This document shows positions 1,140 through 60,956 of a DNA stretch of 64,000 bases, one piece after another. This DNA is from an uncultured Enterobacterales bacterium (GTDB lineage: Bacteria > Myxococcota_A > UBA796 > CAJQPC01), in contig CAZSAT010000001.1 of assembly GCA_964604675.1 (NCBI GenBank), positions 29,110 through 93,109 on the forward strand, in the 5' to 3' direction. Positions within the stretch are counted from its first letter, which is position 1. Each line of letters opens with the position of its first letter. Under the pieces are notes generated by a model that was not told the origin of the DNA, ran no database searches, and saw only the letters and a list, made by a program, of their open reading frames with translations. Both the position numbers and the translations under genes were made by a program.

Positions 1140-2128
1140 AAGCGAGCCACCACGGCCCGCGCGTCGGCGGGAATGCCCCGCAGGAAGCCGCTCCTCCGTG
1201 TCCGCATGCAGTCGATCCCGACGAAGCCCACGCCTGGAAGCTCCGTCGAGAGGCCCTCGGTCTGCGCCGGCTCACCCGTGCCGAGCCCCGCCCAGCGCAG
1301 GTCCCGGCGGTAGCCGGTGGCCCAGACCACCCGGTCGGCGGGCACCTCGCCAGCCTCGGTGACCACTCCGGCGACGGTGAGGCCCACCGCACGCCCCACC
1401 TGGGACACCGTGCCCGCGGCGACGGCGCGATGCACGTCGTCGTCGACCACCGGGACGCCCCCCGAGCAACCGAGCACCCCAGGGGCCCAGCGCACCGGAA
1501 GGCCGGACACCCACCAGGCGAGCCGACCCCGAAGGCCGCGCCCGATCGAGGCGGGCCTTCCAGCCTGCCCCGACACCGTGACCTCCGCGCCCCGAGCGAG
1601 CAGCCGCGGCACCCACTCGGCGGCCGAGTTCCCGAAACCGACGACGACCACGCGCTCGCCGCGCTCGACGTCGGCGATCGACAAGGCCGAGCTGTGGCAG
1701 GCGGGTCCGTCGAAGCGCCCGGGCAGCTCGGGCACCCACGGGCGCTCGTAGGAGCCGGTGGCCAGCACCACACGCGGCGCCTCGTACACGTCGCCGGCCG
1801 TCAGCCGCCATCCCTCCCCCCGCCGCAACGCGGTGACCCGCTGCCCGAAGCGCACGTCGAGCCGCGCTCGGTCCGCGAACGCCCGCCAGGCCGCCAGGAC
1901 CTCCGAGGCCACCGCGCGCTCCGCGGCCCCCTCCACCCCCTCACCATCCGGCAGCCGGTCGTAGCGACGAAGCGACAGGCAGCGCATGTCCGGTCGCACC
2001 CGCGCCCAGAGCCCCCCGACCTCGCCCGTCGCCTCCAACACCACCGTGCGCCACCCACGCGCACGCCCGGCCGCGGCAGCGCTCAGCCCGCCCGGGCCGG
2101 CGCCCACCACGACGAGGTCGGCTCTCAC
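1136..2128 (-). CDS. FAD/NAD(P)-binding oxidoreductase, flavin-monooxygenase-like
   Basis: N-terminal dinucleotide-binding motif DLVVVGAGPGG. A second Rossmann motif, VVVVGFGNSAAE. An ATG-type motif, VVWATGYRRD. The GTG start overlaps the TPR gene stop (GTGA at 2125-2128). Confidence 0.85.
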   Translation of the reverse strand: MRADLVVVGAGPGGLSAAAAGRARGWRTVVLEATGEVGGLWARVRPDMRCLSLRRYDRLPDGEGVEGAAERAVASEVLAAWRAFADRARLDVRFGQRVTALRRGEGWRLTAGDVYEAPRVVLATGSYERPWVPELPGRFDGPACHSSALSIADVERGERVVVVGFGNSAAEWVPRLLARGAEVTVSGQAGRPASIGRGLRGRLAWWVSGLPVRWAPGVLGCSGGVPVVDDDVHRAVAAGTVSQVGRAVGLTVAGVVTEAGEVPADRVVWATGYRRDLRWAGLGTGEPAQTEGLSTELPGVGFVGIDCMRTRRSGFLRGIPADARAVVARL

Positions 2129-4017
2129 CGCGCGGCCTCCACCTGGAGGAGCAGCTGGCGCGCCTCGTCATCGTAAGGGTGGTTCTCGATGGACTTCTCG
2201 AGCAGCGCCTGCGCCTCGTCCAGGCGGCCCGCGTCCAGGCGCATCCGCGCGAGCTCGTTGAACTTCTTGTACTCGATGTCCGGGTTGATGGCGATGGCCC
2301 GCTCGAAGGCCTGCTGGGCGTCGTCGAGCTTGCCCTGCCGCAGGTAGACCAACCCGAGCCCCTCGTAGGGACAGGTGTAGGTCTCCGACTCCACCGCGAG
2401 CGCCGCCTGGAAACGCTCTTCCGCGGCCGCATCGTCGCCCTGGTTCAGCTTCACGAGCGCCAGCTCGGCCAGCGCGTATTGGTTGTCGGGGTCGACGGTG
2501 AGGACCCGCTCCAGCAAGGCCTCGGCGCCCTCGAAGTCGCCCAGGGCGTTCAGCGAGTTGCCCTTGCCGAGCAGCGCGAACAGGTCGGAGGGCTTGCGCG
2601 AGAGCACCGCGTCGAAGTGGGTGATGGCCCGTTCGTGCTGGGCCTGGTTGGCCGCGGACCACCCGAGCCCGGTCTGGGACATCCGGTCGAGCAGCCAGCC
2701 GAAGCCGAAGGGATCGTGGTTGGCGATGGTGGGCTCGGCGGGGTCCAGCGGCGAGAGCCCGCGGTAGGCCGAGAGCAGCTCCTCGGCCTCCGCGTAGCGC
2801 TTCTGGCCAAGGAGAACGTGCCCTCGCGCGACGCCGGCCCAGACCCCCGCCCCTTCCTCCTCGGCCTTGGCGATGGCCGCGGACGCATCGTCCCACCGGG
2901 TCTCCAGGACAGCCAGGAAGGCACTCAGCACCAGCAGCCCTGCGTGCTCGGGTGCGTTCTCGAGGCCCGCTGAGGTCAGCTGTGCAGCAGCGTCGAAGTC
3001 GTAGCGCTCGAAGGCGCGCACGGCGCTGTCGTGCAGGCTGGTGGCGGTCACCTCGCCCTCGTTCTGTTCCAGGCCACGGAGCAGCGCCTGGATCGCCTCG
3101 TCGCTCGAGAGCGCGGCCGCCCGGCGTGCGTAGATCAGCGCCTGCTCGTGCTCCCCGGCGGACTGGCTGGACAGGGCAGCATCCACCTGGGTGATCACCT
3201 TCGCGGGCTCGAGATCGGCCGCTCGGCGGGTCATGGCCGCCACGTCGGCGTCGCGACCGGCCTTCCGGTAGAGCACGCCGAGCGCCACGAAGGGGCACGC
3301 CACGATCTCCGTGGGGCCTTCGATGCGCTCTTCGGCGTCCACCAGCGCCACCGCCTCCATGAGCTCGGCCTCCGCCTCGGCGTCGCGTCCCTGACGCATC
3401 AACACCAGGCCCAGCTGTTCCTTCATGGCGAGCAGCCGTGACAGCTCCACATCCCGCTCGAAGTGGTGCTCGGCCGACAGGGTCTCCCAGTCCGCGACGG
3501 CGATCCGGAGCTCGGCCTCAGCCTCCTCGAGGCGGCCGAGCGCGGCCAACGAGCGACCGGCGTGGGCACGCGCGTGCGGTGAGCTCGGGTCCACCTCCAA
3601 CAGCGCCCGGTCGTACGCCAGCGCGGCCTCGTGGTCCTCGTTGAACTCGGCCCAGGAGCTGAGCATCTGCAGCGTGTAGGGGTCGGTCGGGTCGAGCTTC
3701 TGGGCCATGCGCAACCACGGCGCGGCGTTGGGCGCAAAGCTGTCCATCCCCAGCTCCCCGTGGTCGATGGCGGCGTGGCCCCGCTCCATGAGGACCTGCC
3801 CCATGAGCCGGAACACCACCGCACCCTCCTGCACCTCGAGCTGGGCGCGCACCAGCTCTTCCGCCTGGTCGAAGGCCGCCGGATCGCCGGTTCGCCCTCG
3901 TTCGAGGAGGTCCATCACGGTGACGCTCAGCTCATGGGGTTCGATCACGGCCACTGGTTCCGCCGGCGTCTGCTCGACCTGGCCGACGCACGCCCACCAC
4001 CACAAGAACCAGCTCAT
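2125..4017 (-). CDS. TPR-repeat protein, probable lipoprotein
   Basis: 630-aa ORF with repeated A/L/Y-rich 34-aa-type helical repeats (for example ALAELALVKLNQGDDAAAEERFQAALAV, GLGLVYLRQGKLDDAQQAFERAIAINP). The N-terminus is MSWFLWWWAC. The ATG overlaps the upstream stop (ATGA at 4014-4017). Confidence 0.85.
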   Translation of the reverse strand: MSWFLWWWACVGQVEQTPAEPVAVIEPHELSVTVMDLLERGRTGDPAAFDQAEELVRAQLEVQEGAVVFRLMGQVLMERGHAAIDHGELGMDSFAPNAAPWLRMAQKLDPTDPYTLQMLSSWAEFNEDHEAALAYDRALLEVDPSSPHARAHAGRSLAALGRLEEAEAELRIAVADWETLSAEHHFERDVELSRLLAMKEQLGLVLMRQGRDAEAEAELMEAVALVDAEERIEGPTEIVACPFVALGVLYRKAGRDADVAAMTRRAADLEPAKVITQVDAALSSQSAGEHEQALIYARRAAALSSDEAIQALLRGLEQNEGEVTATSLHDSAVRAFERYDFDAAAQLTSAGLENAPEHAGLLVLSAFLAVLETRWDDASAAIAKAEEEGAGVWAGVARGHVLLGQKRYAEAEELLSAYRGLSPLDPAEPTIANHDPFGFGWLLDRMSQTGLGWSAANQAQHERAITHFDAVLSRKPSDLFALLGKGNSLNALGDFEGAEALLERVLTVDPDNQYALAELALVKLNQGDDAAAEERFQAALAVESETYTCPYEGLGLVYLRQGKLDDAQQAFERAIAINPDIEYKKFNELARMRLDAGRLDEAQALLEKSIENHPYDDEARQLLLQVEAAR

Positions 4018-5090
4018 CGACGCACCAGGGCCAGGCCACGCTTCAGGGTCCAGCCCACCGCGAGGCCCGGCGACCCCGCCAGGGCCGGGTAGGCCTCACA
4101 CGGGGTGAAGCAGCCCCCGCAGGCGAGGGACGTTGCGCCCTCCCGCGCGGCGAGGGCCTCGGCCGAAGCCCAGGCAGCCGCCACGTCGAAGCCGTGGGCG
4201 CGCAGGTCGGCCACCGGCCGGTCCCACACGTGGCAGGGATAGAGCCACCCCTCGGCAGACACGAAGCACGCGCCGTGCATCGCCGCGCAGCTCATGCCCA
4301 GCTCTTCGCCGTCGAGGGTCGCCTGGAGGTTCACCAGGAAGGCCAGCTCCATCAGGTCGACCGGCGTGCGCGGGGGAAAGCGGCGTCGGGCCTGGTCGCG
4401 GACCAGCCGAGCCTGCGCGCCCCGATCGGCCTCCCAGGGCTCGTTGCCGAAGAACTGCGCCGAGCTCTGGTACAGGTTCCAGTGCCACGAGCGCTCGTCG
4501 AAGCCGCCCAGGTCGCTGTCCAGCGCCTGCCGGATCCGGTCGAGGGCGTGCTCGTTCTCGGGCCCCAGGGTGGTTCCCACGAAGGCGGAGACACCACGCG
4601 CCCGCAGCTCGCGGAAGGTGGCGAGCGCACGGCGGTAGGCCCCCTCGCGCCCTCGCATGCGGTCGTGAAGGGCTTCGTCGCCATCCACGCTCACGGTGAC
4701 GATGAGCTCGAGGTCGGGACGGGCGGCGGCGATGCGCTCGCAGGTGTCGACCACGCGGGACGTGAACCAGCCGTTGGTGGGGAAGTGCAGCACGCGCAGG
4801 GCGGGCGTGTTCGCGAGCACCTGCTCGAACACCTCGGCGTGGTCGCCACGGGCGAAGGGCTCGCCACCGGTCAGGTCGAGCCACACGAGCCGCGGCATGC
4901 CCGCCATCAGCCGACCGATCTCGACCGGGGTCAGCTCGCCGGCGGTGGGCATCTCCCAGCTCTTGCAGGTCCCACAGCGCTCGTTGCAGCGGCGGGTGAC
5001 CTGCACCACGGCACGCAAGGGGCTGTCGGGCCGGGCCAGCCAGCTCCGACCATAGGCGCGCACCAGGCCCAGGGCGGTCCGGGTCTTCAC
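4014..5090 (-). CDS. radical SAM enzyme with a SPASM/twitch-like C-terminal Cys cluster
   Basis: CxxxCxxC motif in VQVTRRCNERCGTCKSW. GGEPF motif in LDLTGGEPF. C-terminal CFVSAEGWLYPC and ACGGCFTPC (Cx2Cx3C). I trimmed the 506-aa track ORF to the GTG at 5090, which overlaps the GT2 stop (GTGA at 5087-5090). The upstream extension is R/P/G-rich and lies inside the GT2 gene. Confidence 0.85.
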   Translation of the reverse strand: MKTRTALGLVRAYGRSWLARPDSPLRAVVQVTRRCNERCGTCKSWEMPTAGELTPVEIGRLMAGMPRLVWLDLTGGEPFARGDHAEVFEQVLANTPALRVLHFPTNGWFTSRVVDTCERIAAARPDLELIVTVSVDGDEALHDRMRGREGAYRRALATFRELRARGVSAFVGTTLGPENEHALDRIRQALDSDLGGFDERSWHWNLYQSSAQFFGNEPWEADRGAQARLVRDQARRRFPPRTPVDLMELAFLVNLQATLDGEELGMSCAAMHGACFVSAEGWLYPCHVWDRPVADLRAHGFDVAAAWASAEALAAREGATSLACGGCFTPCEAYPALAGSPGLAVGWTLKRGLALVRR

Positions 5091-5800
5091 CCTTCGATCT
5101 TCCCGCGCACCATGCGCCGCAGGATGCGCAGCCCATCGCGCGCGGTGGCGAAGCCGCTCGCGCCGCGGCCGCGGGCCGAGCGCGTGACCGGCACCTCGAG
5201 CACCCGCCCGCCTCGGTTCAACACGTGCAGCGTGAGCTCGGTCTCGATCTCGTAGCGCACGGCCCGCAGCTCCTCGACCGCGAGGGCCTCCCGCCTCACC
5301 ACGCGGAAGCCCGCCTGGGTGTCGGTGATGCGGGAGCTGTAGAGCACGTTGAAGCAGCCGGTGAGCAGCCGGTTGCCCAGGTGGTTCTTGAAGGTGATGG
5401 CCCCGTCTTCGAGGGTGCCGATGAAGCGGCTGCCGATCACCATCGCCACGTCGTCCGTGAGCGCATCGAGCAGGTCGGGCAGCTCGCCGGGATCGTCCTG
5501 GCCGTCGGCGTCGATGAACGCGAGGATGGGGCACGTGGCGGCAGCCACACCCGCACGGAGGGCCTCGCCCTTGCCGCGGTTTTCACGGAGCACGAGCACG
5601 TCGTCGGCCACGCCACGTGCCGCTTCCGCGGTGCCGTCGCTCGAGCCGTCGTCGACCACGAGCACTTGACCCAGTGACGGCACGGCCGCCCGCGCCGCCG
5701 CGATGACCTGCGCGATGGTGGCCACCTCGTCGTGGGCCGGGATCACGAGGGAGACCTGGGGGCCCAGCGCGGCGACCCGGGCCGACACGGCGGTGCTCAT
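5087..5800 (-). CDS. family 2 glycosyltransferase (polyprenyl-phosphate sugar synthase-like, DPM1/ArnC type)
   Basis: VSLVIPAHDEVATIAQVI, VLVVDDGSSDGT, NRGKGEALRAG and FIDADGQDDP (DxD region) are typical of short GT2 enzymes. Confidence 0.9.
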   Translation of the reverse strand: MSTAVSARVAALGPQVSLVIPAHDEVATIAQVIAAARAAVPSLGQVLVVDDGSSDGTAEAARGVADDVLVLRENRGKGEALRAGVAAATCPILAFIDADGQDDPGELPDLLDALTDDVAMVIGSRFIGTLEDGAITFKNHLGNRLLTGCFNVLYSSRITDTQAGFRVVRREALAVEELRAVRYEIETELTLHVLNRGGRVLEVPVTRSARGRGASGFATARDGLRILRRMVRGKIEG

Positions 5801-5891
5801 GGGCCGAAGCTACCACGGACGGCCTGGTGGCTTGAGCGCCGACTCGTGCTCCTCGTCGAGGCCCTCGCCGTCCCGTGGTAGCAACGAGCCG

Positions 5892-7385
5892 ATGCGACGA
5901 CGCCTCGTCCTGATCGTCTGCGCGCTGCTCCTCGGCGCCTTCGGACTGCTGCGCTTCGACGGCCCCAGCCGCGGGTACTGGGACACCTACATCACGGTGC
6001 CCGCGATGTTCATGGCCGGGCAGCCGGTGGACCTGGTCCGGATCGATGGCACGCCGAGGTTCGACTACGAGCTCTCCGGACGGCTGCCCGACGACACCTT
6101 CGACCCGGACAGCTTCGGCATCTCGTCGAAGGACCAGCGCATCGGCACGGGCATCCTCTTCGCCGCACCCTTCGCCGTGTTCTCGATGGCGGCCTTCCGC
6201 TGGATCTACGCCGCGAGCTGGGTGCTGCTCTTCTTCTTCGCCTCGAAGGCGTTCACCGGCCTCGGCCTGCGGTGGAGCGCCGCGCTCGCCGCGTCGGCGT
6301 GGCTGGTGCTCAACCCCTTCTCGCTCTACCTCGACCGCCTGAACGGCAACCTCTTCGGCCTGGTGCTGCTCGCCTTCCTCTGGCTGCTGCTGAGCGAGAA
6401 GAAGCCGAGCTGGTGGCTGGCCGGAGCGGTCTACGGCATCGTGGGCGGGGTGCGGAACGAGGCGATCGTGGTCGCGCCGCTCTTCCTCGGCTTCGCGTGG
6501 CACCACGAACGCCAGGTGCTCGGCACGCTCAAGGCCCTGGGCACGGCCGTGGCGGCGGCCTTCGTGACCATCCTGCCGGTGTTGATCTGGAACGACTTCG
6601 CCTACGGACAGGCGATCATCCACCCCAGCCAGGTCGCGCACCTGGAGGGCTTCCGACCCACCTTCCCGCACACCTGGTTCGGCCTGGGTGAGCCCTTCGA
6701 GTTCAACGGCCTGCTGAACTGGCCCTTCCACACCGAGCTCGTCCGCACGCCGCACTTCGCGTTCCCGACCTTCGTCCACTGGTCCCTGGTGACCGTGAAG
6801 AGCCTGGGCCTGCTGCTGGTCCCGGTGGCGGCGGTCGGGGGGGGCGTGCTCCTCGTCAAGCGGCCCTTGCACGGCGTCCTGTTGGGCTTCTGGTACCTGA
6901 TCTTCTGCGCGCTCTTCGCGTTCCAGGAGAACTGGGAGGAGCTCAAGCAGACCTTCATGGCGCTCCACCTCTTCCCCCTGGCCGCGGCCCTCGCGGCCGG
7001 GCTGGACTGGGTGACCGCGTCCGTGAAGCGCTGGGTGCCCATCGTCGCTGCGGGTGCCGTGCTGTGGGGCGTGGTCCTGGGGCTCAGGACCGTGGACGTG
7101 CCGGCCGACGAGCGCTGGTACGTGCGCTTCCCGCACGCCGAGGCCAACGACGCGGGCCTCGACGAGCTGCCCGTGGAGCGGCGGAAGGACTGGCAGTTCT
7201 TCTACACCCGGGAGACCCCCGCGGAGATCGCTCGAGAGAAGCGCGACATGACGACCGTCCGGCCCTGGCCCACCCTCTACCGGCCGTTCCACTGGGGAGG
7301 CGCCGAGGCCCTGGCCGCGATGGTCGAGGAGCCCAGCACCCGCGAGCTCACCACCCTGGCGGTGTGGAGCTACATCTACGAATAG
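5892..7385 (+). CDS. polytopic integral membrane protein, possible GT-C-type glycosyltransferase
   Basis: I trimmed the 560-aa track ORF to the ATG at 5892 (MRRRLVLIVCALLLGAFGLL). There are at least 10 hydrophobic segments and a soluble C-terminal tail. The gene is divergent from the GT2 gene. The GT-C assignment is inferred from topology and context only. Confidence 0.65.
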   Translation: MRRRLVLIVCALLLGAFGLLRFDGPSRGYWDTYITVPAMFMAGQPVDLVRIDGTPRFDYELSGRLPDDTFDPDSFGISSKDQRIGTGILFAAPFAVFSMAAFRWIYAASWVLLFFFASKAFTGLGLRWSAALAASAWLVLNPFSLYLDRLNGNLFGLVLLAFLWLLLSEKKPSWWLAGAVYGIVGGVRNEAIVVAPLFLGFAWHHERQVLGTLKALGTAVAAAFVTILPVLIWNDFAYGQAIIHPSQVAHLEGFRPTFPHTWFGLGEPFEFNGLLNWPFHTELVRTPHFAFPTFVHWSLVTVKSLGLLLVPVAAVGGGVLLVKRPLHGVLLGFWYLIFCALFAFQENWEELKQTFMALHLFPLAAALAAGLDWVTASVKRWVPIVAAGAVLWGVVLGLRTVDVPADERWYVRFPHAEANDAGLDELPVERRKDWQFFYTRETPAEIAREKRDMTTVRPWPTLYRPFHWGGAEALAAMVEEPSTRELTTLAVWSYIYE

Positions 7386-9052
7386 GGGCGCTCGACCAGG
7401 AAGGGGCCCAGCGCCATCACGTCGATGGCGCCGCGCTCGAACACCCGCAGCGCGTCCTCGGCGCTCGCGACGATCGGCTCCCCGTGCACGTTGAAGCTCG
7501 TGTTGAGCACCGCCGGTTCGCCGGTGGCCTCCTCGAAGAGCCGCAAGATGCGGTGGTAGCCGGGATCCGGTTCCGGATGCACGACCTGGGGCCGCGCCGT
7601 GCCGTCGACGTGGACGACGGCCGGGCAGACCGCCTGCAGCGCGTCGGTGGTGTCGAGCGACACCGTCATGTAGCGGGCGGTGCGCGCGATCCCGGGCCCG
7701 TAGCCGCGGTAGCAACGCTCGGCGTGCTCCACCGCGGTCGCCGGCGCGAAGGGCATGAACTCCGAGCGCTCCAGCCGCGCGTTCAAGCGGCCGGGCAGGG
7801 TCTCGTCGGAGGCACGCCCCAGGATGCTTCGGTGGCCGAGCGCCCTCAGCCCATACTCCATCCGACCGCTCACACGCGCCACGATGCGCCCGGCCACGAG
7901 GTGCTCGACCACCGCCGCGTCCAGGTCGTTGGGGCGGGTGGCTCGGATGCCAGCGATCTCCAAGGCCCTTCCCGCGGAGGCCTCGGTCACCTCGGTGCCC
8001 AGGTACACGTGGTCGAGCGGGGCCCCGCGGCCACCCTCCACGGCGCCCTGCCAGTGGAGCGCGGCACCGGCCGAGATGCCCTGATCGTTCATCGCGGGGT
8101 GCACGAACAGCCCGTCGACCTCGGGCAGGGCCCACAAGCGCTGGTTCACGAGCACGTTGGCGAACACGCCGCCGGCCAGGACCAGGTGACGCCGCCTGGT
8201 CTCCTGCAGCGCATGCTGGACAAAGGCGACCACCACGTCCTCGAGCCGCTGCTGGGCCGCCGCGCAGATGTCGTCGCGGCTGTGGCCGGCGAGCTCCGCG
8301 AACACCCCGCGCTTCCTGGAGCGGGTGAGCGCCCCGGGCAGCTCGAAGGCGCGTTGATCGGGGCGCAGCCGGATGAGGCGCTCCATCAGCGGGTACGCGC
8401 GGGCCGCGTCGCCCCGAGCACTCAGGCCGGTGACCTTGCCGGCGTCGAGCACCCGGAAGCCCAACAACTGCGTGATCTCCCCGTAGAACTGGCCCGGCGA
8501 GTGCACGGCGTCCGAGCCCCAGAGCGGCTCGCACCGGCCCGCTCGGCAGTCGAAGACCCGGGCCGAGAAGCCGTCGCCGAAGTTGTCGATGGTCACGCCG
8601 AGCGCGTCGTCGAAGTCGGAGGTCAGGTACGCGCTGGCGCAGTGCGCGCTGTGGTGGTCGACGATGGGGACGCCGCGCCCGAAGCGCCGCGCCAGCAGCC
8701 GACGGTTCAGGGCCTCTACCCCTCGCGCCAGCGGTCCGCCCTGGTGGAAGCGCGCCTGGAGCGCCACCCACGCCTTGTGCTCGGGGCCGAACAGGTCGTG
8801 CTCTCCCGCGATGACCCCGGCGCCGAGGAGGCGCGGCAAGACGTGGTACCGGTTGCCGGCCACGACCCCGTCCAGGTCGCCGAAGGTGACCCCGGCCAAG
8901 GCGAGGCAGGCGTCGACCGCGCGCTCCGGGAAGCCGCCCTGGAACTTCTGGCGCGACAGCCGCTCCTCGGCGACGGCCGCGACGATCTCCCCATCGCGCA
9001 CGACCGAGGCGTTGGCGTTGGTGTCCTCGTGCACCGCCAGGACCAGGCTCAA
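7376..9052 (-). CDS. carbamoyltransferase, NodU/CmcH family
   Basis: LSLVLAVHEDTNANASVVRDGEIVAAVAEERLSRQKFQGGFPERAV matches the family N-terminus. The C-terminal TSFNVHGEPIV motif is present. The proposed TTG start at 9052 is preceded by GGAGG 5 nt upstream and overlaps the upstream stop (TTGA at 9049-9052). The start codon is uncertain. Confidence 0.82.
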   Translation of the reverse strand: MSLVLAVHEDTNANASVVRDGEIVAAVAEERLSRQKFQGGFPERAVDACLALAGVTFGDLDGVVAGNRYHVLPRLLGAGVIAGEHDLFGPEHKAWVALQARFHQGGPLARGVEALNRRLLARRFGRGVPIVDHHSAHCASAYLTSDFDDALGVTIDNFGDGFSARVFDCRAGRCEPLWGSDAVHSPGQFYGEITQLLGFRVLDAGKVTGLSARGDAARAYPLMERLIRLRPDQRAFELPGALTRSRKRGVFAELAGHSRDDICAAAQQRLEDVVVAFVQHALQETRRRHLVLAGGVFANVLVNQRLWALPEVDGLFVHPAMNDQGISAGAALHWQGAVEGGRGAPLDHVYLGTEVTEASAGRALEIAGIRATRPNDLDAAVVEHLVAGRIVARVSGRMEYGLRALGHRSILGRASDETLPGRLNARLERSEFMPFAPATAVEHAERCYRGYGPGIARTARYMTVSLDTTDALQAVCPAVVHVDGTARPQVVHPEPDPGYHRILRLFEEATGEPAVLNTSFNVHGEPIVASAEDALRVFERGAIDVMALGPFLVERPYS

Positions 9053-9312
9053 GCGGTCCTCCGACGCCAGAGCACCAGGCCACAGACCGCGTTCAAGCCG
9101 GTGGCCACGCCGATCACCAACCCGACGTGCACGTGGGTCGCGAAGGCCCAGGCCGTGCAGAAGCTCGCCAGCGGCACGACCAGCAGCGACAGCGTGAAAC
9201 CGCCAGCCAGGCGCATCGCCGGCGACCACGCGCGCTCCGCCACCGCCGCGATAAGCACACCGGGCAGGACGAAGGCGTAAGCGAGCGCTGCGAGCTGCAG
9301 GAGAAGGGTCAT
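9049..9312 (-). CDS. small membrane protein (about 3 TM helices)
   Basis: MTLLLQLAALAYAFVLPGVLIAAV...LSLLVVPLASFCTAWAF...VGLVIGVATGLNAVCGLVLWRRR. GC3 is high. It is translationally coupled to the downstream carbamoyltransferase. An alternative GTG start lies at 9333. Confidence 0.6.
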   Translation of the reverse strand: MTLLLQLAALAYAFVLPGVLIAAVAERAWSPAMRLAGGFTLSLLVVPLASFCTAWAFATHVHVGLVIGVATGLNAVCGLVLWRRRTA

Positions 9313-10225
9313 GGTGGAGGACGTGGCTATCACGCGCGCTTCCCACCCCGTGGACCGCGGCGCCCTCGACCACTGGCTCCGGAGCGCGGTGGAGCATCGG
9401 GGGTGCGTGCGATCGTGGGTCCACCCGGTCGAGCCGGGGTACGACTACCCGGAGGCCGCCGTGCTCTGGCTGTCCTGGGCGGCCTGGCGCGGCGAAGCGC
9501 ACACCGAACAAGCCCGGCGCGTGGCCGCCCGGCTGCTCGAGGACCTCACGTCGCAGGGCTCCCTGGGCCGCGGCGGGCAGCGCTACCTGTTCGACAGCTG
9601 CCTGGGCCTGCACGCCCTGGTGAGGGCTGACGTGGACCTCCCCTTCGACCGGATCGTCGAGGGCCTGGCGCGCTTCGAGGCCCCCGTGCAGCCCAGGGCG
9701 GGCGCCCGTTGGTCCGAGCGGTGGACCGGCCACATGGACCGCGCTGCAGCGCTGCTCCTCCAGGCGGCGCACCAACGGCGCTCCGAGCCCGGTGTTCGCC
9801 TCGCCCGACGCCTCCGGGAACGGGCGAGCGAGACCAGCGACTACGTGCATGCTCTCGCCTACGCGGCCGAGGGCGAGCTGCTCTTTCGCGCCCTGGGGGA
9901 GCCGGCCCGCCGCGCGCCCGAGCGCTTCGCCGCCCAGCTCGCCGAGCTCCAGCGCGCCGACGGTGCCCTGCCGGCCTGGATCGACGGCCGCGAGGGGCCG
10001 CGGCTCGACGCCACCGCCCAGGCCGTGCGCCTCTGGGCCCTGATCGACCGTGACCACTACGACGCTCCGATCCAGGCGGCGCTGGGCGTCCTCGCCACCT
10101 GGCAGCACCGGACCGGCGGCATCTGCTACGACCCCCGTGGTCATGTGAACACCTGGACCTCGATCTTCGCCGACCAGGCGCTGGTCTGGGCGGAGGGCGG
10201 AGCGAACGGGCTTGCCTGGATCTGA
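9311..10225 (+). CDS. hypothetical protein, possibly an alpha/alpha-toroid (prenyltransferase/terpene-cyclase-like repeat) fold
   Basis: 304-aa ORF with high GC3. It contains repeated Q-x-x-D/T-G-like motifs (LQRADGALPAW, WQHRTGGICYD, SQGSLGRGG). The fold assignment is inferred from these motifs only. Confidence 0.6.
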   Translation: MVEDVAITRASHPVDRGALDHWLRSAVEHRGCVRSWVHPVEPGYDYPEAAVLWLSWAAWRGEAHTEQARRVAARLLEDLTSQGSLGRGGQRYLFDSCLGLHALVRADVDLPFDRIVEGLARFEAPVQPRAGARWSERWTGHMDRAAALLLQAAHQRRSEPGVRLARRLRERASETSDYVHALAYAAEGELLFRALGEPARRAPERFAAQLAELQRADGALPAWIDGREGPRLDATAQAVRLWALIDRDHYDAPIQAALGVLATWQHRTGGICYDPRGHVNTWTSIFADQALVWAEGGANGLAWI

Positions 10226-11825
10226 GGCCGTGCTCGGCCTCTGGGACGGCCACGGCGCGAGCGTCGCGGTGGTCGCGGAGGGGCGGCTCGTCTTCGCCCT
10301 GGCGGAGGCTCGCCCGAGCCGACGCAAGCGCTTCAGCGGCTTCCCCGAACAGGCCCTCGCCGCCGCGATGCGCTGGACCGACCAGGCCGGGTTGAGCGTG
10401 CACCGCGTGGCGCTCGCCGGGGCGAGGGGTCGGAGCCTCCACCGCCTGGCCGAGCCGCTCTACACGGGGAGCGATCCACACCGCGAGCCGTTGGGGCGCA
10501 CCAGCCTGGCGGCCATGGGCTGGGAGAACGGCGTGGCGCGGTCGCCGGCCGGGCACATCGACGCTCGAATCGGGCGCGCCGTGGTCCAGCGGCGGCTCGC
10601 GGCCGCGGGACTGCGCGCCCCCCTGATCACCGTCGACCACCACGACGCGCACGCCTGGTCCGCGCGCTTCGGGCGAGCGGAGCGCGCGCTGGTGGTGACC
10701 GCCGACGCCTACGGGGAGGGGCGCTCCGCGACCGTGCGGCGGGCAGACACCATGGACGAGGTGCTCGCGAGCACCGACGCGCGCTTCGGCCTCGCGCTGC
10801 TCTTCGGGGCGGTCACCGTGGGGCTCGGCTTCCAGGAGGGCGACGAGGGCAAGGTCATGGGCCTGGCCGCGCACGGCGACCCCGAGGCCGCAGCACCCTT
10901 CGACGCGCTCTTCGAGGGGGGGGTCGAGCCGCACCTCCGGCGTCCGCTCTCGCGTCGACGCGTCCAGCAGCTCCTCGGCGCGCTCTCCCGCGAGGACGCG
11001 GCGGCCGGTGCGCAGGCCTGTGTGGAGCGTCGTGCAGCCGCCTGGATCGCGTCCGAGGTGGAGCGGAGCGGCTGCGGACGGCTGTTGCTCGCCGGGGGCC
11101 TCTTCGCGAACGTCCGGCTCAACCAGAGGCTGGCGAGCCTTCCGGGCATCGACGGCATCGAGGTGTTCGTCGCGATGGGCGACGAAGGGCTGTCCGCCGG
11201 TGCGGCCCACCGGGTCTGGGCGGCTCGCCACGGCCCCGCTGTGTGCCGTGATCCGCGCCTCGGCGTGGCCCACGTGCTCCCGGACCTCGGCGTGCCCACC
11301 ACCACCGCGCGCGTCGCCGAGCACCTCGCGTCGGAACGCGTGGTGTGCCGCTACAGCGGACGCGAAGCCTTCGGTCCCCGCGCGCTGGGCAACCGCTCGA
11401 TCCTCTTCGCAGCGAGGCCGGCGGTCGCGGCCCGCGTGAACGCGGCGCTGGGGCGGGACCCGATCATGGCCTTCGCTCCGGTGATGACGGCGGAGGCCGC
11501 TCCTGCGTTGGTCGAGGGGCACGCCGGTCACCTGACCGACATGACCATCACCGCACGGGCGACCGACCTCCTGCGCCAGGTGTGCCCGGCCGCGGTGCAC
11601 CTCGACGGAAGCGTGCGCCCGCAGGTCGTCCACAGGGCCCAGCAGCCCGCACTCCACGAGCTGCTCACCGCCGCCGCCGAGCGCGGGCTGCCGGCGCTCG
11701 TCAACACCAGCTTCAACCTCCACGGCGAGCCGATCGTGCACACCCCCACCGATGCGCTGCGCACCTGGGAGGCGAGCGGCCTGGACGTGCTGTTGCTGGG
11801 GGAGCGCGAGCTCGGGGTGGCCTGA
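10212..11825 (+). CDS. carbamoyltransferase, NodU/CmcH family (second copy)
   Basis: VLGLWDGHGASVAVVAEGRLVFALAEARPSRRKRFSGFPEQAL and the C-terminal TSFNLHGEPIV motif. The track start is TTG at 10212. An in-frame GTG at 10230 is an equally plausible start. Confidence 0.82.
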   Translation: MPGSEAVLGLWDGHGASVAVVAEGRLVFALAEARPSRRKRFSGFPEQALAAAMRWTDQAGLSVHRVALAGARGRSLHRLAEPLYTGSDPHREPLGRTSLAAMGWENGVARSPAGHIDARIGRAVVQRRLAAAGLRAPLITVDHHDAHAWSARFGRAERALVVTADAYGEGRSATVRRADTMDEVLASTDARFGLALLFGAVTVGLGFQEGDEGKVMGLAAHGDPEAAAPFDALFEGGVEPHLRRPLSRRRVQQLLGALSREDAAAGAQACVERRAAAWIASEVERSGCGRLLLAGGLFANVRLNQRLASLPGIDGIEVFVAMGDEGLSAGAAHRVWAARHGPAVCRDPRLGVAHVLPDLGVPTTTARVAEHLASERVVCRYSGREAFGPRALGNRSILFAARPAVAARVNAALGRDPIMAFAPVMTAEAAPALVEGHAGHLTDMTITARATDLLRQVCPAAVHLDGSVRPQVVHRAQQPALHELLTAAAERGLPALVNTSFNLHGEPIVHTPTDALRTWEASGLDVLLLGERELGVA

Positions 11826-11833
11826 TTCGACCC

Positions 11834-47163: not shown

Positions 47164-47673
47164 ATGCGCATCACCCGTCGGCACGTCCTCGCACTCGGCG
47201 CCGCTGTCAGCGCAGCGGGCGGCATCGGCGTCGGCGTGCTCTACACGCGCTGGTGGGACCGGCCCGTCGGTGACGACTACCGCTTCCTCTCCAACGAGGA
47301 GGGCGCCTTCCTGGAAGCCTTCGCCGACACCGCGTACCCCGCTGGGGGGCTGCCGTCGGTCTCGGGCGGCGAGCTGGCGCTCTCCCACTTCCTGGACGAG
47401 CTCGCAGGCGCGATGGAGCCGATGTCTCGCACCCTGATCCGCGCGCTCTTCCACCTGATGGACGATTGGCCACTGCCCGCTCGCAGCGCGCGCTTCGCCG
47501 AGCTGGACCCGGAGGCCCGAAGGGCGGTCTTCGAGGTCTGGATGCGCCACGACCTGGCGGAGATCCGCAACGCCTTCCAGTCCATCGTGCTGCTGCTGGG
47601 CATGGGCTACACCACCCACCCCCGCACGGTCGACTGGTTCCGACAGCTCTACCCCTGCACCTACGGCACCTGA
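47164..47673 (+). CDS. Tat-signal small subunit of the gluconate 2-dehydrogenase subunit 3 family
   Basis: Twin-arginine signal MRITRRHVLALGAAVSAAGG. Its size and its position immediately upstream of a GMC oxidoreductase fit the family. Confidence 0.78.
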   Translation: MRITRRHVLALGAAVSAAGGIGVGVLYTRWWDRPVGDDYRFLSNEEGAFLEAFADTAYPAGGLPSVSGGELALSHFLDELAGAMEPMSRTLIRALFHLMDDWPLPARSARFAELDPEARRAVFEVWMRHDLAEIRNAFQSIVLLLGMGYTTHPRTVDWFRQLYPCTYGT

Positions 47674-47674
47674 C

Positions 47675-54150: not shown

Positions 54151-54693
54151 ATGCTGCAGGTTGGTGAGGACGCTCCGCGGTTCTCCGTTCAGCCGGTCTT
54201 CGGGCTCCAGGTGGAGCTCCACGAACAGACCCGGCGCTATCCATTGGTGCTCTGCTTCCTGCCGCACACGGGCTCTCCTTGGTGTCGGGAAGCGATGTTC
54301 AAGCTCCAGGAGGCGTACGCCAGCTTCGACCTGCACGGCGCCCAGGTGCTGGTCATCACCCCCGCGAGCATGGACGTCGCCAACGACTACGTGCCCCGCT
54401 ACCACATCCTCTTCCCGGTGGTCTGCGACCCCCAGTTCGAGCTCTTCTCGCTCTACAGCGTGCCCAAGGGTGGCGCGGCCGGTGCCCTGAAGTCGCTGCG
54501 CCCGGATCGGCTCGTGAAGAACCTGCGCGCCCTGAAGCGCGGACTCGGCCCCGTCGAGGGCGTCGAGACCCAGCTCCCGGCCTTCTTCGTGATCGCCCCG
54601 GGTGGCAAGCTGGTCTACGCGCGCTACGGCGGCGCGATCAGCGACCAGCCCGACGTCGACGCCCTGCTCGAGGCGGCCCGCGGATGCTGCTGA
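54151..54693 (+). CDS. AhpC/TSA-family peroxiredoxin-like thioredoxin-fold protein
   Basis: GEDAPRFSVQPVFG, PLVLCFLPHTGSPWCREAMFKL (Cys in the peroxidatic position) and PAFFVIAPGGKLVY. Confidence 0.78.
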   Translation: MLQVGEDAPRFSVQPVFGLQVELHEQTRRYPLVLCFLPHTGSPWCREAMFKLQEAYASFDLHGAQVLVITPASMDVANDYVPRYHILFPVVCDPQFELFSLYSVPKGGAAGALKSLRPDRLVKNLRALKRGLGPVEGVETQLPAFFVIAPGGKLVYARYGGAISDQPDVDALLEAARGCC

Positions 54694-55802
54694 GCCTGCT
54701 GGCCGCGTGTTCCACCTCCTACAGCGCGTCGGCGCTGCCGACCTGGGTGAACGTGGCTGTGCGCTTCGACGACGGGAGCCACGGCTCGGTCACCGTCAGC
54801 TTCGACAACCCGCGCCGCCCCCCCGAGATCCGCTACCAGAATGGCCTGTGGACCTTCGACGGCGCGGACTTCCTGCGCATCGACACCCGCGTGCGTCAGC
54901 ACGAAGGCGAGGTCCTGCACGACCTGTCGGTCACCGACCTGATGACCGACGAGCGCTACGTCGTCGACACCGAATCCGCCGGTGACCACTGGGACATCGC
55001 GGCGGTTCGCGACGGGGCTGTGGCGCTGGACGGCGACCGTGGCGTGTTCTGGATCGACGCGCGCACCGGCGACGAAGTCGAACCGGGAGAGGTCGCTCAC
55101 GAGCTCGTGCACTTCGGACCCGGACGTGGCTTCACCATCGAGCTCGAAGACGGCACCGCCAACCTCAAGCTCCCCTTGCGAGAGGACGAAGGCCTGCCGC
55201 TCTTCCAGGACGTGGCACAGATCGTCTCCGTCAGCTGGCTCTACGACAACGAGGTCGACGACGCCGAGCGCGCCGCGCTCGGCAGCGTCTTCAAGGCCGT
55301 CAGCCCGATCTGGGCCCGCAACCAACCGGCCGCGGTGGATGGTCGGCTCACCGAGTGGCGCCACGACCGGGCCCTGGCCGTGGACAGCGACAGCCACGTC
55401 CAGGACGGGCTCGAGGACTGGGCCGGCGCCCGCGACGGCAGCTTCGGCGTGGCTGCAAGGGTCGACGACGGCCGGCTGAAGCTCGCCATCAGGGTGCGGG
55501 ACGACCAGCTCCTCTACGGGGAAGACCAGCTGGTGATCCAGGTCGGGGCGAATGCCTACCACGTCGACATCGCCTCGGCGGGCCCGATCCGCGGACTCAT
55601 CGGCGCCAAGGGCGTCTTCACCGACACCGTGGACTTCGGCACCGGGCTGGAGCTCTCCTTGCCACTGCCTCCGCCGCCCACCGAGAAGGCGGCCCTGCCG
55701 CTGGTGGTCAGCTACATCGACGCCGACCCGGACCAGGCGGTCGCCACGGTGCTGTCGAACGCGCCGAGCATGCGCGCGCTGGCGATCCGGCGGGAGATGT
55801 AG
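54684..55802 (+). CDS. lipoprotein with a C-terminal CBM9/DOMON-like domain
   Basis: Leader MLLSLLAAC. The C-terminal VDGRLTEWRHDRALAV...DGSFGVAARVDDGRLKLAIRVRDDQLLYGEDQLVIQVG resembles CBM9-like domains. It overlaps the upstream gene by 10 nt. Confidence 0.68.
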   Translation: MLLSLLAACSTSYSASALPTWVNVAVRFDDGSHGSVTVSFDNPRRPPEIRYQNGLWTFDGADFLRIDTRVRQHEGEVLHDLSVTDLMTDERYVVDTESAGDHWDIAAVRDGAVALDGDRGVFWIDARTGDEVEPGEVAHELVHFGPGRGFTIELEDGTANLKLPLREDEGLPLFQDVAQIVSVSWLYDNEVDDAERAALGSVFKAVSPIWARNQPAAVDGRLTEWRHDRALAVDSDSHVQDGLEDWAGARDGSFGVAARVDDGRLKLAIRVRDDQLLYGEDQLVIQVGANAYHVDIASAGPIRGLIGAKGVFTDTVDFGTGLELSLPLPPPPTEKAALPLVVSYIDADPDQAVATVLSNAPSMRALAIRREM

Positions 55803-56313: not shown

Positions 56314-57573
56314 ATGTCCTTCCTGCTCGGCAAGATCCCCCGCTTCTCCCCGTCGTTCTCGTTCCGCGAAGCCACCACGGCGGCCCGGTACCTGGCCCGC
56401 AGCGGCCCGGAAGGCGAGGTCGTGCACACCTTCGAGCGCGAGTTCGCAGCCTTCATCGGCGCGCAGCACGCGGTCATGGTCCCGAGCGCCCGCTACGGCT
56501 TCTGGCTCCTGCTCGAGGGCTGGGGCATCGACAAGGACGACGAGGTCATCATCCCGGCGCTGACCTACTTCGCGATCCCGTCGATGGCGAAGCTCCGGCG
56601 CTGCAAGCCGGTCTTCGCCGACGTCGGGCGCACCACCCACGTGCTCGACCCCGCGGCCTTCGAAGCCGCCATCACCGAGCGCACCAAGGCGGTCGTGCCC
56701 ACGCACCTCTTCGGCACGCCGTGCGACATGGACGCCATCCGCAGCATCGCCCAGAAGCACGGCGTGAAGGTCATCGAGGACTGCGCCCAGTCCACCGGCG
56801 CCCGCTACAAGGGCGCGCGCGTGGGCAGCCTCGGCGACGCCGCCTACTACACCTTCGGCCTCACCAAGAACATCACCACGCTCTCCGGCGCGATGATCAC
56901 CACGGACGACGCCGAGCTCGCGCAGGCCATCCGGACCAAGGTCGAGGCCGGCCAGTTCGTCGACAAGTCCGGCCCCGCGAAGGAAGCGGTGGTGGGCCTG
57001 GCCATGTACCTGGCCACCCACCCCTCGATCTACCCCTTCACCACCCACCAGGCGATCGTGCTGGGCAACCTGCTCGGCAAGGACCCCATCCACGAGCGCT
57101 TCGGGGAACCGGAGCGGCAGTACGTCGAGCTGCCCAGCTACTACGAAGACAGCCGACCGCGCGCCGCCCAGGCCGCGGTGGGCCGCGTGCAGCTCGAGCG
57201 CATCGAGGAGCTCAACGGCAACCGCGCCCGCAACGGACGCTACCTCGACGAGAACCTGGCCAACGTGCCCGGCCTCACGGTGCCCAGCTACCCGGCCGGC
57301 GCCGAGCCGATCTACATGAGCTTCGTGGTGCACCACGCCGATCGCCAGGGGCTGATGCGCGAGCTGCGGGCCCGCGGGGTCGACACCACGGTGGGCTACA
57401 TGTCCAACAACGCCGATGCACACGGCATCTTCGGCCTGGACTACGCCAAGGTCCCGCACGCCGAGGAAGCCGCGCGCGACCTGCTCCACATCCCGGTCCA
57501 TCCGAACCTGACGCAGGCGGACCTCGATCACATCTGTGAAGCTGTGCGTCAAGCCTGTCTCGCCCTGGAGTGA
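56314..57573 (+). CDS. DegT/DnrJ/EryC1/StrS-family PLP-dependent aminotransferase
   Basis: FEREFAAFIGAQHAVMVPSARYG, VIIPALTYFA, VPTHLFGTPCDMD, EDCAQSTGA and FGLTKNITT (PLP Lys). I preferred the ATG at 56314 to the track TTG at 56305. Confidence 0.9.
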   Translation: MSFLLGKIPRFSPSFSFREATTAARYLARSGPEGEVVHTFEREFAAFIGAQHAVMVPSARYGFWLLLEGWGIDKDDEVIIPALTYFAIPSMAKLRRCKPVFADVGRTTHVLDPAAFEAAITERTKAVVPTHLFGTPCDMDAIRSIAQKHGVKVIEDCAQSTGARYKGARVGSLGDAAYYTFGLTKNITTLSGAMITTDDAELAQAIRTKVEAGQFVDKSGPAKEAVVGLAMYLATHPSIYPFTTHQAIVLGNLLGKDPIHERFGEPERQYVELPSYYEDSRPRAAQAAVGRVQLERIEELNGNRARNGRYLDENLANVPGLTVPSYPAGAEPIYMSFVVHHADRQGLMRELRARGVDTTVGYMSNNADAHGIFGLDYAKVPHAEEAARDLLHIPVHPNLTQADLDHICEAVRQACLALE

Positions 57574-57576: not shown

Positions 57577-58074
57577 ATGTTGCTGTTGCTCGCCTGCACC
57601 CCCGGCCAGACCCTCGACGACTCGCTCCCCGGCTCCCTGAGCGAGGACGAGGTGGCGCCAGACTTCGCGCTGGAGGACGTCAACGCCACGTCGGTCACCG
57701 CCGGCACCAAGCTGGGGCCCCAGGACCTGCGCGGCACGATCAGCGCCTGGTACTTCGGCCACGGTACGTGAAGCTACTGCAGCAGCCAGTTCGGCTACCT
57801 CGACCAGATGCAGGCAGAGCTCGATCACGTGACCATCGCGGGTGTGAACGAGGCCGGCCACGAGTCCGGCAACGAGGCCTTCACCGACGGCCGCGACCTG
57901 CCCTGGCTGCAGGACGTCGAGGGTGTGGACGTCTGGTCCAGCTGGGGCATCGACTACCGCGACGTGATCGTGCTCGACGGCGAGGGCTACCCGCTCTTCC
58001 GGTACAACCTGACCGAGCACGACCTGGGTACGGACTACGACGAGCTCAAGCAGCTCTTGGACGACGCCGCCTGA
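57577..58074 (+). CDS. thioredoxin-fold (TlpA/redoxin-like) lipoprotein with an in-frame TGA at 57769-57771; candidate selenoprotein (UxxC), otherwise a pseudogene
   Basis: Track ORFs 57577-57771 and 57808-58074 are in the same frame. Read-through gives ISAWYFGHGT-U-SYCSSQFGYLDQMQAEL, with the TGA at the first position of the CxxC-type redox motif. Leader MLLLLAC. GGAG lies 6 nt upstream of the ATG. Confidence 0.6.
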
Positions 58075-58105
58075 GGCGCTACGATTCGAGCGTTCGGGAG
58101 TGCCC

Positions 58106-59549: not shown

Positions 59550-60956
59550 ATGATCGGCTGGGCCCCGCTCTTCGGCATCCTCGCGGGCTGCGGCCCATCC
59601 GGGCTGGACACCAGCCATCGGGACAGCGCCGACAAGCCACCGGCCGAGCCACCCTACTCGGTGTTCCTGATCACGGTCGACACCGTGCGGGCCGAGCTCC
59701 TCAGCCCCTTCTACGAGCTGGACACCACACCGAACCTGGCGGGCTTCTACGACCAGGCGACCACCTTCACCCAGGCGACGGCGCCTCGGGGCCTGACGCC
59801 CGTCGCCATGGCCACCTTCCTCACCGGCTTCTACCCCCGCAGCCACGGCGTGCGCGAGCCGCTGGACCTCCGGGGGGGCTGGAAGGGAGCCGTGCCTCTG
59901 TTGGCCCAACGCTTCAACGACGCCGGCTACGACACCCACGCCTTCGTGTCCACGTGGACCTCGATGGCGGTCGGCTTCGACCACACCACCGTGACCCCGG
60001 CCGGCAGCCGGGAGATCCCCACGGTCGAGACCGACCTCAGCCTGGTCAAGACGGCCTACAACGTGATCGAGCGGACCGATCGGGACACCCCCGTCTTCGT
60101 CTGGGTGCACCTGCTCACCCCCCACGACCCCTACGAGGCGGCCGAGCCGTGGTTCTCCGAGCGCGTCGACCCGGACTACCGCGGGCTGCTCTACGACGAC
60201 CGCGGTCGCATCGACACGCAGCTCCTGTCGGGGGTGGCGCTCGGCAACCAGGTGGCCGACGAGGCCGACGAGGCCTACCTCGAGGCGGTCTACACGAGCG
60301 AGCTCAACCAGATCGACGAGCAGCTCGGTCTGCTGTTCGGCCACCTGAAGAAGACCGGCGATTGGCATGACTCGGTGATCGCGGTGGGCTTCGACCACGG
60401 CGAGACCCTGCTCGAGCGCGACGACTACGCCTTCCACGGCTGCTCGCTGTACGAGGAGGTGATCAACGTGCCCTTCAGCTTCCGCGCGCCCGGCGCGGAC
60501 GAGCCGCGCACGATCGAAGCCCCGGTGTCCACGGCGGATGTGGCGCCCACGCTCATCGAGCTGGCCGGCCTGACCTGGGCCGGGGATCGCGACGGCCACT
60601 CGCTCGCGTCAGCCATCTACGACGGCGTGGTGCCCGAGCGGGACGTGTTCTTCTCGCGGGTCGACAGCTCGATCGGCATCCGCCGCGGGGACTGGAAGTA
60701 CGTCCTGGCGCCAGGGGGCACCTTCAACGGCTGCGCGCCCTTCGAGACCCGCCGCGAGTACCGCTACGAGATGCCGGAGCAGAGCCTGCACGACCTGGCC
60801 ACCGATCCCCACGAACGCGACAACCTGGTCGAGACCGAGGTCGAGAAGGCCGCCGAGCTTAGGGCCGCGGCGTGCGCGTACGTCACGTCCGCGCCCTGGT
60901 CCCACGACACGCAGGACGACCAGAACGAGCTGGTGACGGCCTGCACCGAAGGCTGA
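59550..60956 (+). CDS. sulfatase-family (alkaline-phosphatase superfamily) lipoprotein with Thr at the nucleophile position
   Basis: Lipobox MIGWAPLFGILAGC. FLITVDTVRAE, TPNLAGF, LTPVAMATFLTGFYPRSHGV, VWVHLLTPHDPY, GFDHGE and HGCSLYEEVINVPF. The canonical C/S-x-P-x-R motif is absent. Confidence 0.83.
   Translation: MIGWAPLFGILAGCGPSGLDTSHRDSADKPPAEPPYSVFLITVDTVRAELLSPFYELDTTPNLAGFYDQATTFTQATAPRGLTPVAMATFLTGFYPRSHGVREPLDLRGGWKGAVPLLAQRFNDAGYDTHAFVSTWTSMAVGFDHTTVTPAGSREIPTVETDLSLVKTAYNVIERTDRDTPVFVWVHLLTPHDPYEAAEPWFSERVDPDYRGLLYDDRGRIDTQLLSGVALGNQVADEADEAYLEAVYTSELNQIDEQLGLLFGHLKKTGDWHDSVIAVGFDHGETLLERDDYAFHGCSLYEEVINVPFSFRAPGADEPRTIEAPVSTADVAPTLIELAGLTWAGDRDGHSLASAIYDGVVPERDVFFSRVDSSIGIRRGDWKYVLAPGGTFNGCAPFETRREYRYEMPEQSLHDLATDPHERDNLVETEVEKAAELRAAACAYVTSAPWSHDTQDDQNELVTACTEG

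Follow-up and report, generated by a model that had tools for sequence, protein, structure and literature searches.

Eleven genes in a 64,000-nucleotide stretch of metagenomic DNA (contig CAZSAT010000001.1, positions 29,110 to 93,109; the whole stretch is called the window here) begin with an ultra-short leader that ends at a lipobox Cys, and the observation of these leaders is confirmed. The leaders are probably the real N-termini of the proteins and would act as minimal signals for the general secretory (Sec) and signal peptidase II (SPase II) pathway, lacking the basic n-region and most of the h-region, in a whole clade and not only in this organism. Export by Sec followed by processing by Lgt and LspA is proposed on four grounds: a lipobox is present, the Cys is invariant, the tether is acidic, and the cargo is of envelope type. 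Comparison with related sequences supports the view that the trait is common to a clade of uncultured high-GC Myxococcota. The window has a G+C content of 71–72% and is the reverse complement of positions 89,415–153,414 of a 182.5-kb metagenome contig (ENA ERZ27249630, k141_1333251). Its relatives among the GTDB species genomes are uncultured metagenome-assembled genomes (MAGs) only, mostly labelled Myxococcota with a few labels that are clearly loose, and the NCBI names on homologs agree. A codon-usage gene finder trained on the window called about 67 genes with 97% coverage, 66 of them complete.

The eleven leaders had been listed in a preliminary description of this DNA, and each was found again with the same coordinates, strand and sequence. 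Eight begin with ATG and three with GTG (17396, 28159, and 34855). All have the same shape, with M or V followed by 3–8 hydrophobic residues, Ala or Ser, and then Cys; the Cys is preceded by 5–9 residues (position 6–10), none of which is K, R, D, or E. Recognised domains are present in nine of the proteins and are of types typical for the periplasm or cell surface, while two proteins belong to no recognised family. The genes on the forward strand (leaders are written with a hyphen before the Cys) encode a rhodanese-domain protein (141 aa, 14518–14943; MLTTLLLSA-C at 14518–14547), a YHYH-domain protein (260 aa, 16617–17399; MLLIAIA-C at 16617–16640), a protein without a family (231 aa, 17396–18091; GTG-initiated VILLLA-C at 17396–17416), a CAP/SCP-like protein (154 aa, 20604–21068; MLLLLA-C at 20604–20624), an M23 peptidoglycan peptidase (225 aa, 34855–35532; GTG-initiated VIWLA-C at 34855–34872), an alpha/beta (dienelactone-type) hydrolase (467 aa, 49197–50600; MLWLLA-C at 49197–49217), a second protein without a family (372 aa, 54684–55802; MLLSLLAA-C at 54684–54710), and a probable thioredoxin-fold selenoprotein with the TUGYCR motif (165 aa with TGA read as selenocysteine, 57577–58074; MLLLLA-C at 57577–57597). 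Those on the reverse strand encode a TPR-repeat protein (630 aa, 2125–4017; MSWFLWWWA-C at 3988–4017), an S8 subtilase with an N-terminal prodomain (490 aa, 26687–28159; GTG-initiated VVVWIVLLA-C at 28130–28159), and an M28 aminopeptidase (377 aa, 42101–43234; MWLLA-C at 43217–43234). The AlphaFold model of the M28 protein has a mean pLDDT of 88.6 overall, and for residues 1–10 a mean of about 50 with no secondary structure. The leader is therefore predicted to lie outside the protein fold, and a role as part of the modelled fold was ruled out. Counting all signals, a lipobox Cys is found in 13 of about 66 window genes (~20%) and in ~19–25% of genes in related MAG loci. Lipoproteins usually make up a few percent of bacterial genes, far below this density.

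The anatomy of the leaders was described from a curated set of 39, consisting of the 11 window leaders and another 28 taken from related loci, with 257 leader residues in total. Between 5 and 11 residues stand ahead of the Cys; the median is 6 for the window leaders and 7 for those of the related loci, where the Cys lies at positions 7–12. Not a single K, R, D, E, or H occurs among the 257 residues. Leu accounts for 43% of them and Trp for 8.6%, compared with 2.0% Trp in the window proteome. The consensus is L(−3) L(−2) A(−1) C(+1), with T, A, or S mostly at +2. In agreement with a lipobox, Leu occupies −3 in 25 of the 39 leaders and −2 in 28, and all 39 have A, G, or S at −1 and Cys at +1. 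The first charged residue has a median position of 13, and residues +2 to +16 form a Pro/Thr/Ser-rich, acidic linker with a mean net charge of about −2.

Established signal classes fit these leaders in part. A lipoprotein signal as described in PMC9360617 combines a basic n-region with an h-region of 7 or more residues. K or R occurs in none of the 39 leaders, and none of the eleven in the window has K or R within its first 7 residues. The leaders likewise lack an h-region of about 7 residues or more, and their Cys, at 6–10 in the window and at 7–12 in the loci, comes earlier than the canonical position of about 15–35. The PROSITE pattern PS51257 and its rules were re-implemented; in this form they reject all eleven short leaders and accept the canonical signal MKRISLLGLVLGGFFAMGMAC. 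Conservation of the Cys is as expected of a lipoprotein, since Cys6 is invariant in the M28 alignment and distant relatives carry the canonical leaders MRFLSALLFLAAC, MKRCTPILALAAWSC, and MTRAIAGRLATLGLLTAC. Other export classes fit poorly. The residue at −1 is small, yet 32 of the 39 leaders have L, W, or F at −3, contrary to the AxA rule of signal peptidase I (SPase I). Arg is present in none of the 39, contrary to a twin-arginine translocation (Tat) signal, and the Cys is followed by a polar, acidic linker instead of the hydrophobic mature N-terminus of a type IV prepilin.

Upstream stops, codon statistics, initiation contexts and ortholog starts agree that the starts are genuine and, as had been proposed, that the short leaders are no artefact of start calling. 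The preliminary description had reported no ATG, GTG, or TTG between the start and the preceding in-frame stop at seven sites (4017, 17396, 20604, 28159, 43234, 49197, and 57577), and this was borne out; the open stretches there measure 78, 18, 42, 36, 39, 48, and 3 nt. For 20604 and 57577, this preceding stop is the codon at which the upstream gene truly ends, a sigma-54 activator gene in the former case and an aminotransferase gene (TGA 57571–57573, with the start 3 nt after it) in the latter. In-frame stops in related loci lie 0, 0, 9, 9, 9, 12, and 12 nt before the start, and two in the window lie 3 and 18 nt before it. The gene finder chose the same start for nine of the eleven genes; for 14518 and 28159 it chose 14470 and 28111, both within coding open reading frames (ORFs). 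Mean in-frame codon log-odds upstream of the starts range from −0.16 to −1.31 at nine sites and are about zero at 14518, and 57577 has one codon before its stop. From the first leader codon onward the log-odds are positive in all eleven. A short lipobox leader was found at 12 of 66 gene starts; among 1384 in-frame start codons inside these genes, 3 have one. One of these 12 is the canonical signal at 28604, caught through an internal GTG, which leaves eleven short leaders proper.

A recognisable initiation context, that is stop/start coupling, a GGAG-type Shine-Dalgarno site or a −10-like hexamer, accompanies 32 of 43 starts flagged by a regular expression, a set that includes a few false positives. 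In the window, the starts of the family-less gene at 17396 and of the M23 gene overlap the stops of the YHYH gene (GTGA) and of a NUDIX gene, respectively, and the start at 54684 overlaps the end of an AhpC/TSA gene by 10 nt. The start of the TPR gene overlaps the stop of an upstream radical-SAM gene. A GGAG Shine-Dalgarno site lies upstream of the YHYH gene, and GGAGG lies 6 nt before the start codon of the S8 gene (28159, reverse strand), with a TATACT box farther upstream. The hydrolase gene has a TAGGCT box 5 nt upstream. The rhodanese gene has a −10-like TATTCG box 6 nt upstream, which suggests a leaderless start at 14518. More generally, 20 of 206 genes have a TAnnnT or TAGnnn hexamer at an upstream spacing of exactly 6 nt from the start codon, the counts at the other 30 spacings being mostly 0–3 with a maximum of 6. 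The position of this motif suggests that many mRNAs of the lineage are leaderless. If so, there would be no upstream mRNA to encode a longer leader at 14518, 49197 and several M28 orthologs.

Hexamers of this kind (TAGCTT, TAGGCT, TAGCCT, and others) occur 6 nt upstream of window starts 5800(−), 5892(+), 14495(−), 14518(+), 22730(−), 32093(+), 40133(−), 43287(+), 51705(+), and 56275(−), as well as in related loci L005–L012. The divergent start codons at 14495 (reverse strand, a GT2 glycosyltransferase) and 14518 (forward strand, the rhodanese lipoprotein) are separated by 22 bp, and the near-palindrome ATGCTATTCG between them provides a −10-like box 6 nt upstream of each.

Orthologs support the same starts. 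Locus L018 is syntenic over the region with about 80% protein identity, and both start positions that were compared are kept there while the leader sequence has changed. The M28 leader is MWLLAC in the window and MFWLAC in L018, from the same position. The M23 leader is VIWLAC from GTG in the window and MLLLAC from ATG in L018, and at both loci the M23 start overlaps the NUDIX stop. Orthologs with longer N-termini, the finding that had been proposed as able to overturn the short leaders, were looked for with a negative outcome: at about 80% identity, the start is the same.

The trait extends across relatives and across protein families. In the M28 family, the Cys is invariant among 21 sequences at 43–80% identity, and 13 of 17 recognisable leaders are no longer than 10 aa (for example MFWLAC, MWFLLAC, MIALWLAC, MWWALLAC, and MRWGTLLLAAC). 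In the alpha/beta-hydrolase family, 86 of 117 homologs have a recognisable lipobox, and 51 of these 86 leaders are no longer than 10 aa, the shortest being MILAC and MLLAC. K or R was found in 1 of these 51 hydrolase leaders, compared with 17 of the 19 leaders of at least 15 aa. Eight related MAG loci (L005–L012, 104 genes), which were found through their M28 genes, were also counted. Short leaders were flagged in 29 of the 104 genes and in about 26 after false positives were removed by eye, and the share is still about 19% when the M28 genes used to find the loci are left out. The farther loci L013 and L015 and distant S8 relatives carry mostly canonical lipoprotein signals. Distant S8 and hydrolase relatives, read by eye and unaligned, have K/R-containing signals that end at the lipobox Cys in the corresponding N-terminal position. 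Because distant relatives carry canonical lipoprotein signals, the trait is likely to be derived within the clade and the Cys is likely to be a genuine lipobox Cys. The M28, hydrolase and MAG-locus comparisons thus support the lineage-specific minimal lipoprotein signal that had been suggested at the outset.

The following sequence of events would account for the leaders. Translation begins at the annotated ATG or GTG, on a probably leaderless mRNA, at a Shine-Dalgarno site or by coupling to an upstream stop. The first 10–15 residues to emerge are uncharged, with a Leu/Trp-rich leader, the lipobox L-L-A-C and a few small residues, and are followed by the acidic linker. A very high hydrophobic density may make up for the length of the leader, and the contrast in charge between N-terminus and acidic linker may set the N-in, C-out orientation in SecYEG. 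With no charged n-region, nothing would hold the N-terminus on the cytoplasmic side, and a leader that cannot reach across the bilayer could then lie wholly within the membrane or the lateral gate, with its Cys near the outer leaflet and accessible to Lgt and LspA. Diacylglycerol would be added by Lgt, and LspA would cut between A(−1) and C(+1). The Sec machinery of the clade probably tolerates minimal signals in general, as suggested by a conserved 10-residue charge-less signal of SPase I type. A bolder proposal, arguable although doubtful, is that this Myxococcota clade has re-engineered its envelope targeting, with most lipoproteins, possibly hundreds per genome, being exported by a non-spanning leader with the help of a relaxed (prl-like) or modified Sec/Lgt/LspA machinery or a dedicated factor.

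Longer true N-termini, hidden by a wrong start or an assembly artefact (non-canonical starts, read-through, frameshift or sequencing error), are highly improbable. Such an artefact is hinted at by the open frames of 336, 1542, 507, and 516 nt upstream of four window ORFs (14518, 16617, 34855, and 54684), by the occasionally longer or shorter N-termini given by gene callers on homologs, and by the one in-frame stop in ORF 57577. These long frames are attributed to the high G+C content, and other genes, read in a different frame or from the opposite strand, fill them; stops lie 0–12 nt upstream in at least eight cases, codon statistics upstream are non-coding, eight of the eleven starts are an ATG immediately before the hydrophobic run, and orthologs share the same start. 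Upstream non-canonical starts were ruled out, as the in-frame upstream peptides are short, rich in Gly, Pro, and Arg, and non-coding by score. Stop-codon recoding was also ruled out: the 66 complete genes end in TGA (50) or TAG (16) and none in TAA, both codons serve as ordinary stops, and two of the preceding stops end upstream genes. The same is true of frameshift or assembly error, since independent ENA, JGI, and Logan assemblies encode identical proteins and the sole in-frame stop, the TGA of 57577, lies in a known selenoprotein motif. Still less probable is that the proteins are cytoplasmic and that the hydrophobic N-terminus with its Cys either has no function or holds them at the inner side of the membrane, for instance through S-acylation. 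Rhodanese and TPR domains do occur in cytoplasmic proteins too. M23, S8 with a prodomain, M28, CAP, YHYH, and a TlpA-like UxxC redoxin, however, belong to families of the envelope or the extracellular space; canonical export signals are found in relatives, and the acidic start of the mature region is what one would expect of a segment that is translocated.

Two further explanations accept export and differ on what follows. The leader may be cut by SPase I after SecYEG export, or left uncut, with the Cys serving as a disulfide or metal ligand and the proteins being soluble in the periplasm or anchored by the leader; this is quite unlikely. Ala at −1 in 32 of the 39 leaders would be acceptable to SPase I, 10-residue charge-less signals of SPase I type exist in the same clade, and lgt and lspA were not seen in the DNA searched. 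Against this, Leu at −3 and −2 is a signature of SPase II whereas SPase I needs a small residue at −3, the Cys never varies and has A, G, or S immediately before it in every case, the canonical signals of distant relatives end at a lipobox Cys in the corresponding position, and the Pro/Thr/Ser/Asp linker resembles a lipoprotein tether. A dedicated route for short leaders is also unlikely, although somewhat less so; it could involve an LspA or Lgt paralog specialised for them, an insertase, or insertion of the uncharged N-terminus head first. It is still to be considered because two leader classes coexist in one genome (the canonical MKRISLLGLVLGGFFAMGMAC, MRKRTVAFGLLGSLVSATALA, and MTRPIALTIALTFAGPAFA and the eleven ultra-short leaders); leader length in the hydrolase family is also tightly tied to K/R content, and Myxococcus xanthus has several lspA paralogs. 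However, no candidate machinery gene is linked to short-leader genes at any examined locus, leader lengths within one protein family run continuously from 4 to more than 20 residues, and the lipobox itself is ordinary. The different targeting route that had been offered as an alternative in the preliminary description gained no positive support, and canonical SPase I signals and one canonical lipoprotein signal are present in the same genome.

Minimal Sec/SPase II signals remain the preferred explanation, and several points weigh against them. Export, lipidation and cleavage are read from sequence only, and leaderless transcription is read solely from the position of the hexamers. A leader of 5–9 residues is too short for the bilayer and has neither the n-region nor the h-region of described lipoprotein signals (PMC9360617). 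The genes lgt, lspA, and lnt were not seen in the ~76 kb of readable contig, a sample too small to be informative, and a tblastn search with E. coli LspA and Lgt queries found no match in 392 kb of DNA, which is likewise too little to be informative. Canonical signals are retained in the same genome, which implies a machinery that does not need short leaders, and two routes could coexist.

These other signals were examined in the same genome. Two canonical lipoprotein signals had been claimed in the window; the one at 28604 stands (MKRISLLGLVLGGFFAMGMA-C, 28281–28604, reverse strand), and the one at 59550 (MIGWAPLFGILAGC) is only semi-canonical. The latter belongs to a sulfatase (59550–60956, forward strand) with an intermediate leader of 13 aa (MIGWAPLFGILAG-C) that has no K or R and places the Cys at position 14. 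Canonical signals on the same contig include those of an outer-membrane beta-barrel protein (MTRPIALTIALTFAGPAFA) and of another protein (MRKRTVAFGLLGSLVSATALA), and canonical SPase I signals were located at L021:15229 and L021:20493 on that contig. A Tat signal was found at 47164 (MRITRRHVLALGAA), which indicates that the Tat route and a normal Tat signal are intact in the organism. The protein concerned (169 aa) has a clear twin-arginine signal (MRITRRHVLALGAAVSAAGG) and is encoded directly upstream of a gene for a GMC-family FAD oxidoreductase; together the two genes (47164–49180, forward strand) look like a Tat-exported two-subunit dehydrogenase.

An HtrA/NMA111-like protease (22784–25504, reverse strand), whose start is preceded by a GGAGG site, has a 10-residue charge-less signal of SPase I type, GTG-initiated VLLCFGLALA-ADW. 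Its orthologs at 70–74% identity have MLWISTVALA-ADW and MLWLCTLAFA-ADW, with the same signal length. As this charge-less signal is of SPase I type and its length is kept in orthologs, the minimal-signal trait is probably not specific to lipoproteins, and relaxed requirements for Sec signals in general are suggested rather than a lipoprotein-specific route. A HEAT-repeat protein (15132–16466, reverse strand) has the N-terminus MSVLLWALAWA-TTW.

In the short-leader gene at 57577, an in-frame TGA (57769–57771) lies within the motif GHGT-[TGA]-SYC (57757–57780), and the frame then continues to 58074. With Cys put in for the TGA, the 165-aa product matches the NCBIfam family NF053656 (TUGYCR motif thioredoxin fold (seleno)protein) with 183.8 bits, the cut-off being 100. 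The TGA is therefore a probable selenocysteine codon. Public gene calls divide the ORF into 64 and 88 aa, and an end after 64 aa, as initially assumed for this gene, was incorrect, since the gene would extend to 58074 through the probable selenocysteine TGA. A hairpin of the bacterial selenocysteine insertion sequence (bSECIS) type downstream of the TGA was not significantly more stable than shuffled sequences (z = −1.67), and the selenoprotein call therefore rests on the family match.

Canonical Sec/SPase II signals (E. coli Lpp type; PS51257) share with the short leaders the [AGS]-Cys lipobox with Leu at −3, the conserved Cys, small or polar residues after the Cys followed by a flexible linker, and a cargo of envelope enzymes. 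The short leaders differ from them in having no K or R (0 of 39), in placing 5–11 residues before the Cys instead of a Cys at position 15–35, in having mostly Leu at −2, in a fourfold enrichment of Trp, and in that all eleven fail PS51257 as re-implemented. Type IV prepilin (SPase III) leaders are also very short, with about 5–10 residues before the cleavage site, but they are basic, end in Gly, precede a long hydrophobic mature N-terminus with Glu5, and are cleaved at the cytoplasmic face, and none of these features is seen here. Kendall as well as Hikita and Mizushima (about 1990–92) reportedly engineered poly-Leu cores and n-region charge deletions and found that hydrophobic density offsets missing charge or a shorter core. 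Those signals, with cores of about 8–10 residues, were made in the laboratory and placed on single reporters, whereas the leaders described here are natural, have only 3–7 hydrophobic residues and dominate across a clade and many protein families. The prl suppressor alleles of SecY, SecE, and SecA relax translocon proofreading and export proteins with defective or minimal signals. They provide a conceptual precedent for minimal-signal export, and a likeness to the Sec machinery of this clade is purely hypothetical. Full-text literature searches (subscription-only papers being outside their scope) found no description of such leaders and none of the literal leader strings. An ordinary lipobox is combined here with a leader of extraordinary architecture, which is dominant in a clade and for which no earlier description was found in the literature.

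If the leaders work as proposed, natural Sec-type signals can be as small as about 4–7 hydrophobic residues, uncharged and too short for the bilayer, which is a new minimum, and the roles of the n-region and of h-region length in targeting, orientation and recognition by Lgt and LspA become directly testable. If envelope targeting has indeed been re-engineered, h-region length and a basic n-region would be lineage-bound features and not universal requirements. The SPase II training data of SignalP 6 were compiled from UniProt and PROSITE (PS51257) annotations. Rule-based predictors, and tools trained on rule-derived sets, are likely to overlook short-leader proteins, which PS51257 as re-implemented excludes; if so, the lipoproteomes and secretomes of abundant uncultured Myxococcota would be badly underestimated. 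Very short functional lipidation tags could also be useful in protein engineering.

Two neighbouring features were also observed. A cluster of lipopolysaccharide (LPS) core type at 5087–14495 contains a heptosyltransferase (GT9), a Kdo hydroxylase, GT2 enzymes, two carbamoyltransferases, and a radical-SAM enzyme, and the TPR lipoprotein gene (2125–4017) is translationally coupled to the radical-SAM gene of this cluster. On the same contig, about 4.8–5.1 kb beyond the left edge of the window, a 112-aa protein (L022:19188–19526, forward strand) has the N-terminus MGCCNKKHSGKP, which resembles eukaryotic dual-acylation (Gly2/Cys3) motifs.

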